Virus record (IMG/VR): IMGVR_UViG_3300019889_000008
Location: 1-64,000 of that record
Length of the DNA stretch: 64,000 nt
Strand: one strand, 5' to 3'
Source of the DNA: a virus
Shown here: in pieces, positions 276 to 47,206 of the stretch
Layout of the letters: each line of letters begins with the position of its first letter
Numbering within the stretch: the first letter of the stretch is position 1
Notes under the pieces: model-generated
What the model was told of the DNA's origin: nothing
What the model saw: only the letters and a program-made list of their open reading frames with translations
Database searches by the model: none
Translations under genes and position numbers: made by a program

Positions 276-1637
276 ATGCCGAAGGCCAAGTCGACCCCGC
301 CGCAGCCACTGCTGGAGGCCGATGGCACCCCGGTGCTATGGCCGGCTGACCACGTCGAGCGGTGGCCAATCGACAAACTGGTGCCCTACGCCCGGAATGC
401 GCGGACGCATTCGGACGAACAGATCGCGCAGATCATGGCGTCGATGCGGGAGTGGGGCTGGACGAACCCGGTCCTCATGGACGAGGCCGGCGGCATCATC
501 GCTGGCCACGGCCGGGTCCTGGCCGGCCAGCGGCTCGGGTTCGACACCGTGCCGGTCATGGTGGCCCGCGGCTGGAGCGAGGCGAAGAAGCGGGCTTACA
601 TCCTGGCCGACAACAAACTGGCGCTCAACGCCGGGTGGAACGACGAACTGCTGCGTCTGGAGATCGCCGATCTCGACGCGATGGGCATTGATATCCCGAT
701 GCTCGGCTGGACCGAGAAGGAACTGGACAAGTTGATGGGCGGCGGCAAGGCGGGGCTCACGGACCCCGATGCCGTCCCCGAGGAGCCGCCGGTCCCGGCG
801 ACCCTGCCGGGCGACCTGTGGCAGCTCGGCGGCCATCGCGTGATCTGTGGGGACGCCACCGACAGCGCGACGGTCGGCCGACTGCTGGCCGGGGTGAAGC
901 CGCATCTCATGGTGACCGATCCGCCCTATGGCGTGTCCTACGACCCGGCCTGGCGCAATGGCGTCGACCTCGGGCTCGGCGAGGGCAAGCGGTCCACCGG
1001 CAAGGTCCAGAACGACGATCGGGCCGATTGGTCGCCCGCCTGGGCCCTGTTCCCCGGCGACGTGGCCTATGTCTGGCACGGCGGTGCCCATGCCGACACG
1101 GTGGCCCAGAGCCTCCGGATCGAGGGGTTCCAGATGCGGTCGCAGATCATCTGGGTCAAGCAGCACTTCGTGGTCAGCCGGGGCGACTATCACTGGATGC
1201 ATGAGCCCTGCTGGTACGCGGTCCGCAAGGGCAAGACCGGGCATTACAACGGGGATCGCAAGCAGACCACGGTTTGGGAGATCCGCAACAACAACCCGAT
1301 GGGCGGCGGCTCGACCAAGGAGAAGACCTGGGATCACGGCACGCAGAAGCCGGTCGAGTGCATGCGCAAGCCGATCGAGAACAACTCCTCCGCCGGCCAG
1401 GCCGTTTATGATCCCTTCCTCGGATCGGGCACGACGATCATCGCGGCCGAGATGATGGGCCGCGCCGGCTACGGCTGCGAACTGAGCCCCGGCTATTGCG
1501 ACGTGATCGTCAAGCGGTGGCAGGAGTTCACGGGCGAGGACGCCCGCCTGGACGGGACCGGCGAGACCTACGAGGCCGTCCTGGCCCGGCGGATGCAGAT
1601 GCCGACGCATCCCGAGCTGGCCAAGACGGTCCAGTGA
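276..1637 (+). CDS. ParB/Srx-like N-terminal domain fused to amino (N6A/N4C) DNA methyltransferase
   Basis: N-term LVPYARNARTH..GWTNPVL..IIAGHGR (ParB-like); TDPPY catalytic motif; HGTQKP and DPFLGSGTT SAM-binding motif; position upstream of terminase. Confidence 0.92.
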   Translation: MPKAKSTPPQPLLEADGTPVLWPADHVERWPIDKLVPYARNARTHSDEQIAQIMASMREWGWTNPVLMDEAGGIIAGHGRVLAGQRLGFDTVPVMVARGWSEAKKRAYILADNKLALNAGWNDELLRLEIADLDAMGIDIPMLGWTEKELDKLMGGGKAGLTDPDAVPEEPPVPATLPGDLWQLGGHRVICGDATDSATVGRLLAGVKPHLMVTDPPYGVSYDPAWRNGVDLGLGEGKRSTGKVQNDDRADWSPAWALFPGDVAYVWHGGAHADTVAQSLRIEGFQMRSQIIWVKQHFVVSRGDYHWMHEPCWYAVRKGKTGHYNGDRKQTTVWEIRNNNPMGGGSTKEKTWDHGTQKPVECMRKPIENNSSAGQAVYDPFLGSGTTIIAAEMMGRAGYGCELSPGYCDVIVKRWQEFTGEDARLDGTGETYEAVLARRMQMPTHPELAKTVQ

Positions 1638-2785: not shown

Positions 2786-4367
2786 GAAGCGGGGCGCGTT
2801 CCCGGAGCGCGCAGAGAGGGTCCGCCGCTTCATCGAGTGCTTGGTCGTCCCGAGCGGTGTCGGCCAGGGCGGCCGGTTCCGGCTGCGGCCCTTTCAGCGG
2901 AAATTCATCAAGGCGATCTATGAGCCCCACACCTTCAAGGGGCGGAACTGGCGCCGGGTGGTGCGGCGGGCGATCCTGTCGATCGGCCGCAAGAATGGCA
3001 AGACCGCGCTGATCGCGGCGCTCGTGCTCGTCCATCTGTGCGGGCCCGAGGCGATCCGGAACGGCGAGATCTACTCGGCCGCCAATGAACGCGAGCAGGC
3101 CGCCCAGGTCTTCAAGGTCTGCCAGCAGATGATCCTGGCCGACCCGGAATTGCGTTCTCGAGCTGGGCTTGAGGTGATCCCGTCGACCAAGACCATCCTC
3201 TGCCGGCGCAACGGCAGCGTGTATCGGGCGATCTCGGCCGAGGCCGGGACCAAGATGGGCTTGAACCCGAGCGTGGTCGTCTATGACGAACTGGCGCAAA
3301 GCAAGAACCGGGCTCTCTACGATGCGCTCGATACCGGCATGGGCGCCCGCGAGGAGCCGCTCTTCATCGTCATCAGCACGCAGAGCAATGACCCGCAGCA
3401 CATCCTCTCGCAACTGATCGATGACGGGCTCCGGGCGGAAGACCCAACGATCGTTTGCCACCTATACGCCGTCCCCGACGATGCCGAGGACGTCTTCGAC
3501 GAAAGCGTCTGGAGCATCGCGAATCCGGCCCTGGACGATTTCCGCAGCCTGGAGGACATGCGGGCGATGGCGGCACGGGCGGCCCGCATGCCTTCGTTCG
3601 AGAGCACCTTCCGCAACCTCTACTTGAACCAACGGGTCGACTCGCAGAGCCCGGTCATCCCGCGGGCCGAATGGGAAGCCTGCCAGGCCGGCGAAACGCT
3701 GAAGCCGGGCGAGCGGATCTATCTCGGGCTCGACCTGTCGGCCACGACCGATCTGTCCGCGCTCGTCGGCTGCTCGGCCGATGACGGCGATCGGGTTTCG
3801 TCGTGGTTCTGGAAGCCCGGTGACTTGCTCCGTGACCACGAGCTGCGGGACCGGGCGCCCTATACCCTCTGGAAAGCGCAGGGGTGGCTCCAGGCGCCGC
3901 CCGGCAAGGCCATCGACTACGGCTACATCGCCGAGCAAATCGCCGCCCTGCAAACCGACTACGACGTTGCGGCCCTCGCCTTCGACCGCTGGCGCATCAA
4001 GGATCTGATGCGGGAGTTCGAACGGATCGGCTTGCAGACCTACGCCGACGACGACAAGCCGATCCCCGGTGCCCTGCGGCTGGTGTCCTGGGGCCAGGGC
4101 TTCCGGGACATGAGCCCGGCGATCGACGCCCTGGAGATCTCCATCTTGCAGCGCCGGTTCGCCCATGACGGCAACCCGGTGCTCAACTTCTGCATTGCCA
4201 ATGCCACGGCGGTTAGCGATCCGGCCGGCAACCGCAAATTGGACAAGTCGGCGACCCGGTTCCGGATCGACGGCGCCGTGGCCTGCGCCATGGCAGTCGG
4301 CCTCAAGGCCCGCGATCTCCAGCGGGTGGTGCAGCCGTCCTATCAGATGCTCTTCGTCGGAGGGTAG
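2778..4367 (+). CDS. terL: terminase large subunit
   Basis: Walker A GRKNGKT, YSAANEREQA, Walker B VVYDELA, nuclease GLDLS..TDL, DRW, RIDGAVA. Confidence 0.96.
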   Translation: MPKKRGAFPERAERVRRFIECLVVPSGVGQGGRFRLRPFQRKFIKAIYEPHTFKGRNWRRVVRRAILSIGRKNGKTALIAALVLVHLCGPEAIRNGEIYSAANEREQAAQVFKVCQQMILADPELRSRAGLEVIPSTKTILCRRNGSVYRAISAEAGTKMGLNPSVVVYDELAQSKNRALYDALDTGMGAREEPLFIVISTQSNDPQHILSQLIDDGLRAEDPTIVCHLYAVPDDAEDVFDESVWSIANPALDDFRSLEDMRAMAARAARMPSFESTFRNLYLNQRVDSQSPVIPRAEWEACQAGETLKPGERIYLGLDLSATTDLSALVGCSADDGDRVSSWFWKPGDLLRDHELRDRAPYTLWKAQGWLQAPPGKAIDYGYIAEQIAALQTDYDVAALAFDRWRIKDLMREFERIGLQTYADDDKPIPGALRLVSWGQGFRDMSPAIDALEISILQRRFAHDGNPVLNFCIANATAVSDPAGNRKLDKSATRFRIDGAVACAMAVGLKARDLQRVVQPSYQMLFVGG

Positions 4368-40376: not shown

Positions 40377-41966
40377 TTACCGCCGGATGAAGTCGGCGAT
40401 GACCGCGGGCGTATCGGCATCGAACCCCACCACGTCCAGCATGCCGCCATCGTTCGGGTCCGCGATCGTGAACCCGTTCGAAGTCATCGCGACGACCGCC
40501 AGCTTGGCAGCGATGCCGGTCTTGGTCCGGTACAGTTGCAGGGCCTGGACCGGGTGCATCCGGCCCGCATAGGTCTCCGCGTCCGTGTAGATCACGAAGG
40601 CGTCGACCTCCAGGCCGTGCTCCAGCGCATAGAGCATCGGAAGCGAGCAATCGGTGCTCTGGAACCCGAGCGTGCCCATGTAGCGGACCACGTCGCCGAG
40701 CCGCTGGCGGGGCGAGATCGCGAGCGGCATGAAGCCGCGCGAGAAGCCCATCAGGTGATAGTTCTGCTCGGTCGCCGCCGTCACGAGCGCCATCGCCGCC
40801 GCGCCCTCACGAGCGGTCAGCGAGGTGCCGGCGATCTTGTTCCCCTCCATGGAGCCCGAGACGTCGATGCCGAGCAGGAGGCGCTTGCCGGTCGGCTCGA
40901 TGGTCCGGAACGCCGCATAGAAGCCGGCATCGAGCGCATCGACGATGCTCTGCACCGGCGCCCACGTGAGGCTCCCGCGCTCGCCATGGCCGCTCGCATA
41001 GGTCCGCTGCGCCAGCAGCAGGGCGAGCGGATGGACGCGGGCCGCCTTCAGCGCCGCCTCATCCTGCACGGTTCGGCAGACATGCATCGCCGCGTCGCCG
41101 AGCGGCTTCAGCAGCCCCACGGCCGTCATCTTGGCCAGCGACCGGATCATCGCCGTGAGCGGCATGCCCGAGAGCAGCGCAGCCCAGACCTCGACGCTGT
41201 TCAACGCCGGAATCGGCACCGCCTCGCGCGGCAGAGAATACGTCCGCACCAGAGCCGCGATCTCGCGCGACGGCACGCCCTCGACGTTCGCCTCCTCATA
41301 GCCGCGCACGATCGCCGGCAGGGCCTCTGCCGTCTTCTCCCGGCCGCAGATCCAATCGAACAGGGCACGCCGCTCCGCATCGTCGACCGCAGTCAGCGGG
41401 TGCGCGAGCCGCAGCAGATCTCGATGCGCCCAGCCGTCGCGCTGGCGATACTTCACGGCCTGGAGCGCCAGCCTGTCGATCGGCTTGCGGGCATACCAGT
41501 CGGCGAAGGCGCGCTTCGTGCCACGGCCCCAGCCGCCGAAAGCCTGAACAAAGTCGGCGGCGTGGAACAGATGGGTTCCAGTGCGGGCGACCTTGTGGAG
41601 CGCATCGCCGGCCGCGCGGCGGGTCCGGTCATCGCCGAGCTTCATTGCCATGGCGAGCGCGAACAGCGCCGGGTCGTTCTTCGGCGCCCGGCCCTCGACG
41701 CTGATCGCCACGATGGTCTCGACCGCGCGCAGGCCATCTGCCGCGATGCAACGCTCGACGGCGTCCGCGCTCTCACGGGTCAGCTTGCCCTCGTTGATGT
41801 AGAAGGTGCCGCCCTCGGAACCGAGGATCAGGAACCGCTCCAGACGCATCCAGTCGTCGACCGGGAAGGCGTAGCCCCCAGCGGAGTTCGGCACGGTGCC
41901 CGCGATCGGCTCGGTCTGCGGGGTGGCTCCGCCGCGCCCGATGTGCCGGGCGAGGTACGACGTCAT
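40377..41966 (-). CDS. rsr: Ro60/Rsr TROVE-vWA RNA-binding protein
   Basis: NSAGGYAF, RLERFLILGSEGGTFY, RTGTHLFH, GWGRG, KYRQRDGWAHRDLLRLAHP, MIDAS DVSGSM, YTD.ET, DVVGFD. Confidence 0.97.
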   Translation of the reverse strand: MTSYLARHIGRGGATPQTEPIAGTVPNSAGGYAFPVDDWMRLERFLILGSEGGTFYINEGKLTRESADAVERCIAADGLRAVETIVAISVEGRAPKNDPALFALAMAMKLGDDRTRRAAGDALHKVARTGTHLFHAADFVQAFGGWGRGTKRAFADWYARKPIDRLALQAVKYRQRDGWAHRDLLRLAHPLTAVDDAERRALFDWICGREKTAEALPAIVRGYEEANVEGVPSREIAALVRTYSLPREAVPIPALNSVEVWAALLSGMPLTAMIRSLAKMTAVGLLKPLGDAAMHVCRTVQDEAALKAARVHPLALLLAQRTYASGHGERGSLTWAPVQSIVDALDAGFYAAFRTIEPTGKRLLLGIDVSGSMEGNKIAGTSLTAREGAAAMALVTAATEQNYHLMGFSRGFMPLAISPRQRLGDVVRYMGTLGFQSTDCSLPMLYALEHGLEVDAFVIYTDAETYAGRMHPVQALQLYRTKTGIAAKLAVVAMTSNGFTIADPNDGGMLDVVGFDADTPAVIADFIRR

Positions 41967-41994
41967 GATCCGTCCCTCCATGCTGGCGTGGGTG

Positions 41995-42125
41995 GTGCGA
42001 ACGTGTTGTTTGGCAACCGTCGAGGTGCTCTACCACTGAGCTACGGCAGGCTTTCGCCCGACGACGGGATTCGAACCCGCGGCCACCCGCTTACGAGGCG
42101 ATAACGATTACCAGTCGGCTCGCAC
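41995..42125 (-). ncRNA. yrlA: YrlA-type Y RNA
   Basis: Terminal stem GUGCGA/UCGCAC with GAGCCGA..GUUAUC and CAACACG; tRNA-like module with T-arm (GGGUUCGAAUCCC) 5' of D-arm (GCUCAGUGGUAGAGC) and a GAAA-capped acceptor-like stem; adjacent to rsr. Confidence 0.9.
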
Positions 42126-44043: not shown

Positions 44044-44841
44044 CTATTCCTCGCCGGCCTTCATGGCTTCCACCATGAGCGCGGTCAGATCCCTTTTGCG
44101 GCTCGGCTTGCACTGGACCTTGATCAGGTCGACAGGGCCGCCGGGCACCTCGTCGTTGAACACCCCGACCACGATGCGTCCCGTGAACCATGCGAAGGTG
44201 TCCAGGTCGGTCCGGCCGGCATACAGCATCGGGCCCTCGGCGAACTGGTGATGCCCATGAACGACATGCCTGTCGCCGTGGCCCCGCTCGTCGTCGTCAT
44301 CGTAGAGCTTCCACATGAGCACATGAGGGCTCTGCTCACCGAGCGAGACAGTGGGGTCGACGCCGGCATGGACGAACACCCGATGTTGAGTGACGCAGAT
44401 CATCGGAAGGCCGTCGAGCCAATCGAGGTGCTCGACCGGCACGATCGCCCGGTCGGCTATCTCGCCGACCTTCTGGCCGTATGAGATCAGCGTCGCCCCG
44501 CCGCCGTTGACGATCCACCACCCGAGGTCGGCTTTCCCGGATGCGCATTGGACCATGATGTCCTCGTGGTTCCCCTTGAGGCAGATCCAAGTCCAGCCCG
44601 GCGACGGCCCGGCCATCAGCCGGTCGATGATCTGCTTGCTCTGCGGGCCCCGGTCGACATAGTCGCCCAAGAAGACGATCGTGCCAGGCCGCTTTGCATC
44701 GGCCTCGATGGCGGCCAGCGCCGCCTCCAGGATGTCGAGGCGTCCATGCAGGTCCGCGATGGCATAGGTGTAGCCCCGCGGGGCCTGGAGGCCCGCCAGC
44801 AGCCGGTCGCGCATTTCGTGTGCGGAGATGGTCTTGGGCAT
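44044..44841 (-). CDS. metallophosphoesterase (lambda NinI/PphA-like Ser/Thr phosphatase)
   Basis: DLHG, GDYVDRG, GNHE, FVHAG, VHGH, DT. Confidence 0.92.
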   Translation of the reverse strand: MPKTISAHEMRDRLLAGLQAPRGYTYAIADLHGRLDILEAALAAIEADAKRPGTIVFLGDYVDRGPQSKQIIDRLMAGPSPGWTWICLKGNHEDIMVQCASGKADLGWWIVNGGGATLISYGQKVGEIADRAIVPVEHLDWLDGLPMICVTQHRVFVHAGVDPTVSLGEQSPHVLMWKLYDDDDERGHGDRHVVHGHHQFAEGPMLYAGRTDLDTFAWFTGRIVVGVFNDEVPGGPVDLIKVQCKPSRKRDLTALMVEAMKAGEE

Positions 44842-44863
44842 CGTCTCACCGGTGTGCAAAGAT

Positions 44864-45012
44864 CGCCGCGGGCCGGGCGCTAATCCGGCCTCCCTCTTGA
44901 GCCGACCTGATTCTCTTCGGCCGGGCCCGGCCTCCAAGGATAGGGCTCCCGAACCTGTACAAAGGTGGGGCGCCTGAGACGGCGGCATGTCTGCTTCCCA
45001 CGCTGCCGCGGC
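44864..45012 (-). ncRNA. tRNA-like RNA with about 95-nt insert in place of anticodon arm
   Basis: Acceptor GCCGCGG/CCGCGGC, D-like GCGUG-GGAAGCAGA-CAUGC, T-like GCCGG-AUUAGCGC-CCGGC. Confidence 0.6.
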
Positions 45013-45032
45013 CACGCCATCATATCCGAGAT

Positions 45033-45052
45033 CGGGCACAGATCAATGCCCA
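45033..45052. promoter_or_regulatory. operator-like palindrome
   Basis: CGGGCAC-agatca-ATGCCCA. Confidence 0.55.
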
Positions 45053-45060
45053 TTGCGTGG

Positions 45061-45149
45061 TGGTGGGCGCCCGAGGATTCGAACCTCACGCGGCCGACCC
45101 GTCTCGGATTGCGCGCCGGGTTTACAGCCCGGTGACGGGAAAGGCGCCC
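45061..45149 (-). tRNA. D-armless tRNA-like RNA with GUA (Tyr) anticodon and long variable arm
   Basis: GGGCGCC/GGCGCCC-A-CCA, CCGGG-CU-GUA-AA-CCCGG, canonical T-arm; only 10 nt where the D-arm should be. Confidence 0.8.
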
Positions 45150-45325
45150 CGAGAGGTTTGAGCGGGGAATACACACGGCAGCCCTCCCCGCCCGACACAG
45201 CTACCTCAGACCGCGTCCGGCCCTTGGACCACTGCGGCGCCCCCACCTCGGAGGGACCGCTGCTGAAGCCTACCCATCTGCCGAGAGAAGGCTTCCATCT
45301 CGCACTGCCACCTAGCCCGCATGGG

Positions 45326-45405: not shown

Positions 45406-45494
45406 TGGCGGAGGGCGGAGGAATCGAACCCCTAGCGCTGTCAACGCTACCCCGGTTTTCGGGACCAGTTGCCGGCCATTCAGCGGCGCCCTCC
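45406..45494 (-). tRNA. tRNA-Ser(CGA), 8/4 (allo-type) fold
   Basis: 8-bp acceptor GGAGGGCG/CGCCCUCC, 4-bp T stem, long variable arm, G73-CCA, loop CC-CGA-AA. Confidence 0.85.
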
Positions 45495-45964: not shown

Positions 45965-46192
45965 TTAAGAGGGGGGCAACATTTCGTTGCGGAGCTTCCT
46001 CACGGTCTCCGCGAGCCTGTCTGCGGTCTCGCGGGCGGTGACCATCCGCTCCTCCATCCAGAGCAGCCGGTGGCACGCCTCCTCGACAAGCGAGAACCAT
46101 CCCTGCTGTGGTGCATCGGCGGACGTCCGCACGAAGTCTAGGACCGCTTGCGCGTCGAACGTGTTTCGGTCCTGCTCGGGGAGCGTTCCCAT
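45965..46192 (-). CDS. hypothetical protein (domain shared with 34998-35582)
   Basis: AGGAG RBS; APQQGWFSLVEEACHR. Confidence 0.65.
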   Translation of the reverse strand: MGTLPEQDRNTFDAQAVLDFVRTSADAPQQGWFSLVEEACHRLLWMEERMVTARETADRLAETVRKLRNEMLPPS

Positions 46193-46653
46193 GGTGATCT
46201 CTCCTGGGGCGGCCGGAAGACGATGACTTCAGCGGCCAGCGGGTTGAGGTAACGGAAGATCTCGGCGGCCACCAAGAGCCACGGCAGGCCACCCTTGCCG
46301 CAGCCAAGGGCTGGGACGCCGATGGAATTGATGCCAAGCCGCTCGATCGTTGGGGCCAAGTGGCTCAACCCCCAGCCGATCCATTCGGGCCGGCTGGGCT
46401 TGCGCCACTCCCGCTTCGTCGGGAAATGGATGACCCACCGCGGGTGCGAGCCGGAGCCACGGTCGAATTCGTGCAGGCGCCCCGGCTGCAACTGGCCAAT
46501 GGCGCAGGCGGCCATGTAGGAGCGGCTCGCCTCGGGAAAGCGGTGCCGGAACTCCTTCGCCAGCCCAGCGCCCATCACGCCCTCGCAGTTCACGGGGTTG
46601 ACCAGGGCCTCGGCGCCGCAGGCGAAGATGTCGCCGTCGCTGTATCGGATCAT
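46138..46653 (-). CDS. macrodomain protein (DarG-like ADP-ribosylhydrolase)
   Basis: GDIF, ALVNPVNCEGVMGAGLAKEF, HFPTK..W, PALGCGKGGL.W. Confidence 0.92.
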   Translation of the reverse strand: MIRYSDGDIFACGAEALVNPVNCEGVMGAGLAKEFRHRFPEASRSYMAACAIGQLQPGRLHEFDRGSGSHPRWVIHFPTKREWRKPSRPEWIGWGLSHLAPTIERLGINSIGVPALGCGKGGLPWLLVAAEIFRYLNPLAAEVIVFRPPQERSPWERSPSRTETRSTRKRS

Positions 46654-46654
46654 C

Positions 46655-47206
46655 CTATCGCCTCCTCGGCGCCCGATGCCCGAGCGCCTTATAGAGCGCA
46701 TCGCGGGTCTCGACGTCGTCTGGCCCGTACCGGAGCGAGTTGTTAAAGTGAGCCCCAAGCACCAGAGCAATCGCTCGAACTCCGGGCTCCAAATAGACGT
46801 ACTGGACCCATCCGAAGACGGGCCGACACGGGGTAGGAGGTTTTGGCAACCTCTCTTCCGTGATCCAGGTGGCCACTGCCGTCCCGCTCCGCCCGAGAAG
46901 CTTGGCCAACTCGGGCGGCGTGAACGTGAGCAATGATGCCCATTCGTCGTCGACATTGACCTCACGGACACTGCCGAAATCCATCAAGCGATCAAGTCGC
47001 AGCCGGGGATCATCGACGAACACGCCCGCACGCTCTCGATATGAGTCGCGAGCGCGCTCGGCGGTTCCAGAGCCATAAGCCTTGCGGCGCCGCCGGTTGT
47101 GCTCTTCGCCCCAATAGCGATCCTTCCGCTCTTCAGGCGTCAAGCCGCCGCGCGGGCCTGACCCGATGCCCAAGGATCGCCCGGGATGTTTCCCGTCTCG
47201 TTTCAT
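46655..47206 (-). CDS. hypothetical DNA-binding protein
   Basis: FTPPELAKLLGRSGTAVATW..RLPKP HTH-like. Confidence 0.6.
   Translation of the reverse strand: MKRDGKHPGRSLGIGSGPRGGLTPEERKDRYWGEEHNRRRRKAYGSGTAERARDSYRERAGVFVDDPRLRLDRLMDFGSVREVNVDDEWASLLTFTPPELAKLLGRSGTAVATWITEERLPKPPTPCRPVFGWVQYVYLEPGVRAIALVLGAHFNNSLRYGPDDVETRDALYKALGHRAPRRR

Follow-up and report, generated by a model that had tools for sequence, protein, structure and literature searches.

We describe a gene at positions 45061–45149 on the minus strand of a 64,000-nucleotide stretch of viral DNA (positions 1 to 64,000 of the IMG/VR record IMGVR_UViG_3300019889_000008; hereafter, the window). It encodes a tRNA-Tyr(GUA)-like RNA that lacks a D hairpin and in which, on comparative evidence, the D helix is formed as a pseudoknot with the loop of the long variable arm. 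An original prediction, made from the letters of this sequence without database searches, had taken the gene for a tRNA whose fold is rewired, not for one in decay, and had proposed covariation of two complementary hexamers among homologues as the check. The helix between the linker and the variable arm does covary, in 80 distinct homologues, so that the gene has a selected fold and not a decayed one. Considering its array context, identity marks, anticodon, 12-base-pair (bp) acceptor branch and tRNA-cluster neighbours, the gene is probably a working tyrosine tRNA, phage-encoded, functional and of a non-cloverleaf class, whose charging and decoding we infer from sequence.

Anatomy of the gene

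The hexamers CCCGUC and GACGGG, located at plus-strand positions 45134–45139 and 45098–45103, are perfect Watson–Crick complements, as had been claimed. The two strands lie 30 nucleotides apart, flanking the anticodon arm and one strand of the variable stem, and their duplex has an energy of −9.5 kcal/mol (ViennaRNA). On the minus strand, the elements follow one another in the order GGGCGCCU/UU/CCCGUC/A/anticodon arm/CGCG/CAAUCCGA/GACGGG/UCGGC/CGCG/U/T arm/GGGCGCCC/A/CCA. The individual features, all on the minus strand, are as follows:

45061–45149 (−): the whole gene, 89 nucleotides, tRNA-Tyr(GUA)-like, without a D hairpin and with an encoded 3′ ACCA (sequence and family model)
45142–45149 (−): 5′ strand of the acceptor stem, GGGCGCCU, 8 nucleotides, the U at the eighth position pairing with the G at 45072 (family helix 1)
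45140–45141 (−): connector UU, 2 nucleotides, at the place of tRNA positions 8–9 (U in 71/80 and 76/80 family members)
45134–45139 (−): 5′ strand of the pseudoknot, CCCGUC, at the D-arm position, pairing with 45098–45103 (family helix 2)
45133 (−): single A after the 5′ pseudoknot strand, at the place of position 26 (sequence)
45116–45132 (−): anticodon arm CCGGG-CUGUAAA-CCCGG, with the anticodon GUA at 45123–45125 (sequence and family helix 3)
45112–45115 (−): 5′ strand of the variable-arm stem, CGCG, pairing with 45089–45092 (family helix 4)
45104–45111 (−): connector CAAUCCGA, 8 nucleotides, from the variable stem to the 3′ pseudoknot strand (7–8 nucleotides in 57/80 family members)
45098–45103 (−): 3′ strand of the pseudoknot, GACGGG, within the variable-arm loop (exact complement of 45134–45139)
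45093–45097 (−): connector UCGGC, 5 nucleotides, in which the GG at 45094–45095 is a candidate equivalent of G18–G19 (5 nucleotides in 67/80 family members)
45089–45092 (−): 3′ strand of the variable-arm stem, CGCG (family helix 4)
45073–45087 (−): T arm GAGG-UUCGAAU-CCUC, with a 4-bp stem and a canonical T loop, preceded by U (sequence and family helix 5)
45065–45072 (−): 3′ strand of the acceptor stem, GGGCGCCC (family helix 1)
45061–45064 (−): discriminator A followed by encoded CCA (A in this column in 80/80 family members, CCA encoded in 60/80)

The ACCA end, the anticodon arm with GUA, the T arm and the ten nucleotides at the D-arm position are all present as originally described. These ten nucleotides (UUUCCCGUCA) have no self-complementarity and form no D stem-loop hairpin. 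The variable region comprises 27 nucleotides with a covarying 4-bp stem, and thus corresponds to a long (class II) variable arm. All helices of the window copy are fully paired, and the ACCA is intact.

Homologues and covariation of the pseudoknot

Homologues were collected from IMG/VR with a pattern scan constrained only at the anticodon loop and the T loop, set apart by a long gap, which returned 113 stretches. A short linker replaces the D arm in 91 of the matches (69 distinct sequences), and in 85 matches it is exactly ten nucleotides long. Matches with shorter gaps were ordinary class II tRNA-Tyr genes with a D arm and were used as controls; the spacing from acceptor to anticodon stem is 18–23 nucleotides in these canonical genes versus ten in the family. 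The 80 distinct homologues come from uncultured viral contigs, five cultured Pseudomonas phages and bacterial tRNA arrays. A covariance model (R1) was built from nested pairs only, being blind to the pseudoknot, and the 80 members, bacterial ones included, were realigned. The window gene matches R1 over model positions 1–89 with 76.1 bits (E-value 4e-20), and this full-length match is accompanied by the ten-nucleotide linker and by complementary hexamers followed by N-G-G.

In this pseudoknot-blind alignment, the pseudoknot helix is 99.2% paired, with both-sided changes at five of its six pairs and 33 distinct hexamer pairs across the family. One pair alone occurs as UA (39), CG (26), GC (6), AU (5), GU (2) and UG (1). 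For comparison, the acceptor helix is 99.8% paired and all eight of its pairs show both-sided changes, the anticodon helix is 98% paired and the variable-arm helix 91%, and the T stem of the family has four pairs. The covariation of all four variable-arm pairs upholds the outer CGCG/CGCG stem of the 27-nucleotide variable arm that had been proposed. An independent MAFFT alignment of 64 distinct members gave a similar picture (99.7% of the pseudoknot paired, five of six pairs changed on both sides), and the ten-nucleotide linker is present in all 64. When the 3′ partners of all pairs were slid by one column, pairing over the whole structure fell from 96% to ~47%. Judged from these alignments, the helix between linker and variable arm covaries as strongly as the acceptor stem; comparative evidence thus establishes the fold, in which the pseudoknot helix is real and under selection.

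The nearest relatives of the window gene (L010, L058 and L161) are nearly identical to it in sequence, and L058 carries CCCCUC/GAGGGG, a compensatory swap of G-C to C-G relative to the window. In a scan with a 19-mer of the window's anticodon arm, the metagenome matches listed were mostly ordinary bacterial tRNA-Tyr genes, and viral contigs added only L161 to this subgroup. Among cultured phages, blastn detected genes of this architecture in Pseudomonas phages SCYZ1, Rembedalsseter and Lyrsu01–03, where they are unannotated; these are the only cultured carriers found in this way. Their copies adjoin a tRNA-Pro gene, directly upstream of the small terminase gene, and their hexamers differ from those of the window yet are complementary (CCUCAC/GUGAGG and CCUGUC/GACAGG). 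The consensus-like member L054 of the main subfamily had no blastn match among cultured phages at an E-value of 1e-3.

The family alignment also corrects the branch. A 7-bp acceptor stem (a 7/5 branch) had been described, but the eighth acceptor pair is always formed in the 80 members, as GC in 60, UG in 12, AU in 6, CG in 1 and UA in 1, the window having U8·G78, and the alternative fifth pair of the T stem is unpaired in 49 of 64 sequences. By these counts, the acceptor/T branch is 8/4, not 7/5, and keeps 12 bp. Directly after the 3′ pseudoknot strand, the family has U-G-G (U in 77/80, G in 76/80 and G in 80/80) and two more nucleotides, while the connector before this strand is A/U-rich in most members.

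Some variants depart from this pattern. In L150 (~857–950, plus strand) and L152 (~3393–3490, plus strand), AUAG or GUAG replaces the U-G-G after the pseudoknot strand, and the T loops are CGCAAUU or UGCAUAU versus UUCRAUU elsewhere; these two related sequences may show a coupled change of the elbow contact proposed below. Copies in L092 (1730–1822, plus strand) and L040 (502–596, minus strand) have an eight-nucleotide linker, a 5-bp helix ACGGC/GUCGU followed by AUUGG, and apparently a 7/5 branch. Both carry identical strands and so provide no covariation information.

Evidence for a tyrosine tRNA

The suggestion that the gene might be a tyrosine tRNA gained support from its relatives, which fill the tyrosine slot in large arrays, and from its GUA, A73 and G1–C72. 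Among the 29 family-bearing loci whose array covers at least 15 other amino-acid types, 27 contain no other tRNA-Tyr call, and the same is true for nine of the 11 loci with all 19 other types. In the window, the loop CUGUAAA presents GUA within seven nucleotides, together with U33 and A37, as befits tyrosine identity. An anticodon-blind scan of the main subfamily recovered GTA in 67 of 67 family-type matches. A73 is found in all 80 members and G1–C72 in 76, neither of them being part of the retrieval patterns, and the window gene has both (the A at 45064).

The extra 'tRNA-Tyr' calls in L061 (4399–4486, minus strand) and L087 (10753–10841, plus strand) were rejected as standard tRNA-Tyr. The gene behind them is an odd one of class II: its anticodon is GUA, its discriminator is U73, and its anticodon loop is irregular (AUGUAGA and UCGUAAA).

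Several points weigh against reading the gene as a functional tyrosine tRNA. Expression, processing, aminoacylation, decoding, the L shape and the contact between the GG and the T loop are all inferred. The slot-filling evidence comes from relatives, the phage of the window having only five tRNA-like genes. Since the retrieval patterns fixed CUGUAAA and the T loop, conservation at these sites is partly by construction, and the outermost pair of the T stem is unpaired in 36 of the 80 members. In the subgroup to which the window gene belongs, the GG sits one nucleotide away from its usual place (UCGG versus UGG), and CCGA/UCGG would allow a competing local stem. Finally, four of the five bacterial carrier genomes examined encode a canonical tRNA-Tyr elsewhere (none was found in the genome of L121), alongside which the fold would not be the sole cellular tRNA-Tyr. 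Given these canonical genes and the presence of the pseudoknotted gene in just five of 150 other sampled Planctomycetota genomes, in bacteria it seems to be an accessory gene carried by arrays rather than the core tRNA-Tyr.

Proposed fold and mode of action

The 5′ pseudoknot strand leads, via a single purine, into the anticodon stem and would thus stand where the 3′ strand of the D stem normally is, while the variable-arm strand with the following U-G-G would replace the 5′ D strand together with the first part of the D loop. The D arm would in effect be permuted, its 5′ strand and loop start having moved into the loop of the variable arm. We propose that the 6-bp pseudoknot helix stacks on the anticodon stem and that the GG meets the canonical T loop as G18–G19 do, forming the elbow and keeping the L shape. 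The extra acceptor pair may help the two-nucleotide connector to reach the far end of the pseudoknot helix. In function, processing of the tRNA-cluster transcript would release the RNA; the tyrosyl-tRNA synthetase (TyrRS) of the host would charge it via GUA, A73, G1–C72 and the long variable arm, and EF-Tu would carry it to read UAY codons. EF-Tu reads 12 bp of the acceptor branch.

To our knowledge, elongator tRNAs of bacteria and phages are universally taken to be cloverleaves with a D hairpin, the known exceptions being organellar tRNAs that have lost arms and use adapted factors. If the proposed reading is true, the L shape can be reached by another strand topology with the standard bacterial machinery, and the apparent lack of tRNA-Tyr in many phage and bacterial arrays is explained. 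It would also expose a blind spot of tRNAscan-type annotation and provide a compact new scaffold for orthogonal tRNA engineering. As five cultured Pseudomonas phages carry the gene unannotated, experiments are within reach.

A tentative and, on balance, unlikely extension is that the pseudoknotted D arm is an adaptation in a phage–host conflict over tRNA-Tyr, providing phages and mobile arrays with a cleavage-resistant tyrosine tRNA. The surfaces for RNase P, TyrRS, EF-Tu and the ribosome would be kept, and the D-arm and elbow features on which host defence nucleases dock would be removed; alternatively, the features removed could be those used by a nuclease of the phage itself that depletes host tRNAs. 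Host defences, including anti-phage nucleases, target tRNA-Tyr (PMC11555353), so that the fold offers a testable hypothesis of immune evasion. Should this extension be correct, the gene would also give the first demonstration, outside organelles, of a natural elongator tRNA that functions in the absence of a cloverleaf.

Alternative readings

The gene could instead encode a conserved tRNA-like RNA with no use in decoding, such as a decoy or sponge that engages a host factor or a nuclease directed at tRNA-Tyr, a regulatory RNA, a non-ribosomal donor of tyrosine or a Y-RNA partner of Ro60. Charging and decoding are, after all, predictions; tRNA-Tyr is a target of host defences (PMC11555353); and a Ro60 ortholog lies 3 kilobases (kb) away, at 40377–41981, the YrlA-type Y RNAs of bacteria and phages being tRNA mimics (PMC4201824). 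We consider such a role distinctly unlikely. Most family members sit in tRNA arrays, and the replacement of tRNA-Tyr alone in arrays that cover the other 19 amino acids makes a decoy or an aminoacyl donor, as the original prediction had contemplated, less likely. The full anticodon arm, A73, CCA and the 12-bp acceptor branch have all been kept, and the best YrlA-like signal of the window is elsewhere, at 42024–42087. A decoy role is also compatible with being charged as well.

Another possibility is that a tRNA with the anticodon GUA is charged with a different amino acid, such as serine or leucine, via its long variable arm, recoding UAY. Both the seryl- and the leucyl-tRNA synthetase read class II architecture, and 8/4 allo-tRNAs with mismatched anticodons exist (PMC5389517). 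This is very improbable considering that A73 is invariant, that the anticodon is of the tyrosine type, and that the arrays also hold ordinary tRNA-Ser and tRNA-Leu genes. No sign of recoding was noticed in these phages, although no test aimed at it was made.

Equally improbable is a D-armless tRNA of the mitochondrial style, with a flexible unpaired linker and a self-contained variable hairpin (CGCG..CCGA-loop-UCGG..CGCG) instead of a pseudoknot. Covariation with the variable-arm strand, seen here at five of six pairs, is not expected of an unpaired linker. The hairpin can be drawn in the window and three close relatives, all high in G+C, and the nested minimum-free-energy fold, which cannot represent pseudoknots, lacks the cloverleaf-like stems and pairs the linker and variable arm in other ways. 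The inner stem of this hairpin, CCGA/UCGG, which formed part of the variable arm as first described, did not hold up. It is absent from the other ~76 members, CCGA being invariant only inside the high-GC subgroup, and in the four sequences that have it the changes are confined to one side (UCGG, UUGG and CUGG), the last creating an A·C mismatch. The inner stem is therefore unsupported by comparison, and the geometry of H-type pseudoknots suggests that, with connectors of zero nucleotides, it could not coexist with the full 6-bp pseudoknot.

That the gene is a decayed tRNA-Tyr pseudogene with a deleted D arm and a coincidental hexamer match is scarcely credible, for although tRNA finders reject it and the match within the window sequence alone is only mildly unlikely by chance (a perfect 6-mer complement arises in 1.9% of 200,000 shuffles of the linker and variable arm), all of its stems are intact, and 80 distinct homologues from phages of unrelated hosts and from bacterial arrays share the ten-nucleotide linker and compensate in 33 hexamer pairs, which contradicts a pseudogene.

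Detection and comparison with known systems

The gene at 45061–45149 was not called by ARAGORN in either default or mitochondrial mode, and no Rfam family matched it at gathering thresholds. The general tRNA model RF00005 left it unmatched both at the gathering threshold and in E-value mode, and a permissive Rfam search scored it only with the tRNA-Sec model RF01852, at 28.5 bits versus a gathering score of 47. The remark that this is not a described class stands as far as could be searched: Rfam was found to hold no family for a pseudoknotted tRNA-Tyr lacking the D hairpin, and no description of a tRNA whose D helix is formed by the variable arm was found in the searchable literature, which is incomplete and includes few subscription journals.

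Canonical class II tRNA-Tyr(GUA) shares with the window gene the loop CUGUAAA, A73, G1–C72, the long variable arm, the T loop, CCA and the location in tRNA clusters. It has a D hairpin and a 7/5 branch, whereas the window gene forms its D helix in trans with the variable-arm loop and has an 8/4 branch. Such 8/4 tRNAs, namely tRNA-Ser and tRNA-His, are used in translation by bacteria and phages (Mukai et al. 2017, PMC5389517). Together with the allo-tRNAs, they resemble the window gene in the 12-bp 8/4 branch, the long variable arm, the occurrence in phage clusters and the tRNA-Sec-like succession of a six-nucleotide strand and UGG; the D arm of allo-tRNAs shares with the family the motif of a six-nucleotide strand followed by UGGU. 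In contrast to the window gene, their D arm is still a hairpin, long in the stem and closed by a tetraloop (PMC5389517). Their identity is that of serine or histidine, or their anticodons vary, while the window gene, with GUA and A73, is of neither the serine nor the histidine type. Neither a tyrosine species nor a pseudoknot is mentioned by Mukai et al. (PMC5389517).

tRNA-Sec (RF01852) resembles the window gene in its long variable arm, its 8-bp acceptor stem and its D helix, which has 6 bp and precedes UGG; in the Rfam consensus, the D arm is a six-nucleotide strand followed by UGGU. It differs in having UCA, a 13-bp branch and a D helix closed as a hairpin, versus GUA, 12 bp and a D helix that is not a hairpin. 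The D-armless mitochondrial tRNAs, such as metazoan mitochondrial tRNA-Ser(AGY) and those of nematodes, likewise have a short connector and no D hairpin (PMC4013460, PMC7609411). Their connector is described as flexible and devoid of a covarying partner, and these tRNAs work with adapted organellar factors; in the window family, the connector is part of a conserved 6-bp helix, and the RNA resides in bacteria, whose factors are the standard ones. Like the YrlA Y RNAs, which are tRNA mimics bound by Ro60/Rsr (PMC4201824), the window gene encodes a tRNA-like RNA near a Ro60 ortholog, here in an actinophage-like genome. The YrlA model RF02553 gave no match at 45061–45149, its one match, below threshold, being at 42024–42087. 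YrlA RNAs are not known to have an anticodon arm or a CCA acceptor end of this kind.

Genomic context and distribution

When one genome per bacterial species was scanned with a pattern, the gene was found in 15 contigs, mostly of Planctomycetota. In two of the three megabase-scale chromosomal contigs, it lies inside arrays of 31–36 tRNA genes that otherwise lack tyrosine. The Planctomycetota contigs L116, L130, L121 and L129 carry 16–36 tRNA genes in 3–5.5 kb, each with a pseudoknotted Tyr gene; two of these arrays are on chromosomal contigs of megabase scale, and the genomes other than that of L121 have canonical tRNA-Tyr genes elsewhere.

The virus record spans 73.8 kb with ~66% G+C. The stretch was found only in DNA runs of soil metagenomes, one of which may be its source, and no RNA run is among the sequencing runs listed as carrying it. 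The gene shares its strand with tRNA-Ser(GCU), an 8/4 tRNA-Ser(CGA) and tRNA-Gln, an arrangement that is kept in L010 and L058. The tRNA-Ser(CGA) gene, located 260 nucleotides upstream (45406–45494, minus strand), is itself irregular. Its acceptor stem comprises 8 bp and its T stem 4 bp, its variable arm is long, and in its anticodon loop, CCCGAAA, CGA denotes serine and C stands at position 33. It is missed by ARAGORN in default mode and scores 33 bits with the tRNA-Sec model and 26 bits with R1. Also present in L010 and L058, where the L058 copy has the anticodon UGA and U33, it fits the phage (8/4) tRNA-Ser described by Mukai et al. 2017 (PMC5389517).

The Ro60 ortholog (40377–41981, minus strand) comprises 534 amino acids with TROVE and Ro60 vWA domains, and is closest to the proteins of Gordonia, Microbacterium and Mycobacterium phages (~50% identity). 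The YrlA match directly upstream of it (42024–42087, minus strand; 31.5 bits, E-value 8e-4, gathering score 69) is likely a divergent phage Y RNA. A calcineurin-like/NinI-like phosphoesterase (44044–45039, minus strand), which is 71% identical to its L010 counterpart, starts 22 nucleotides past the Tyr gene, and a Macro-domain protein (46138–46971, minus strand) flanks the other side of the tRNA cluster. With the Ro60 ortholog, these genes look like an RNA-handling neighbourhood.

Between the tRNA-Gln and the Tyr gene lies an insertion of 174 nucleotides (45150–45323, minus strand), which is absent from L010, where the two genes abut. It was rejected as part of the element, given this absence and the fact that it folds no better than shuffled sequences (z −0.7). 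Within it, there is a terminator-like hairpin at 45192–45177.

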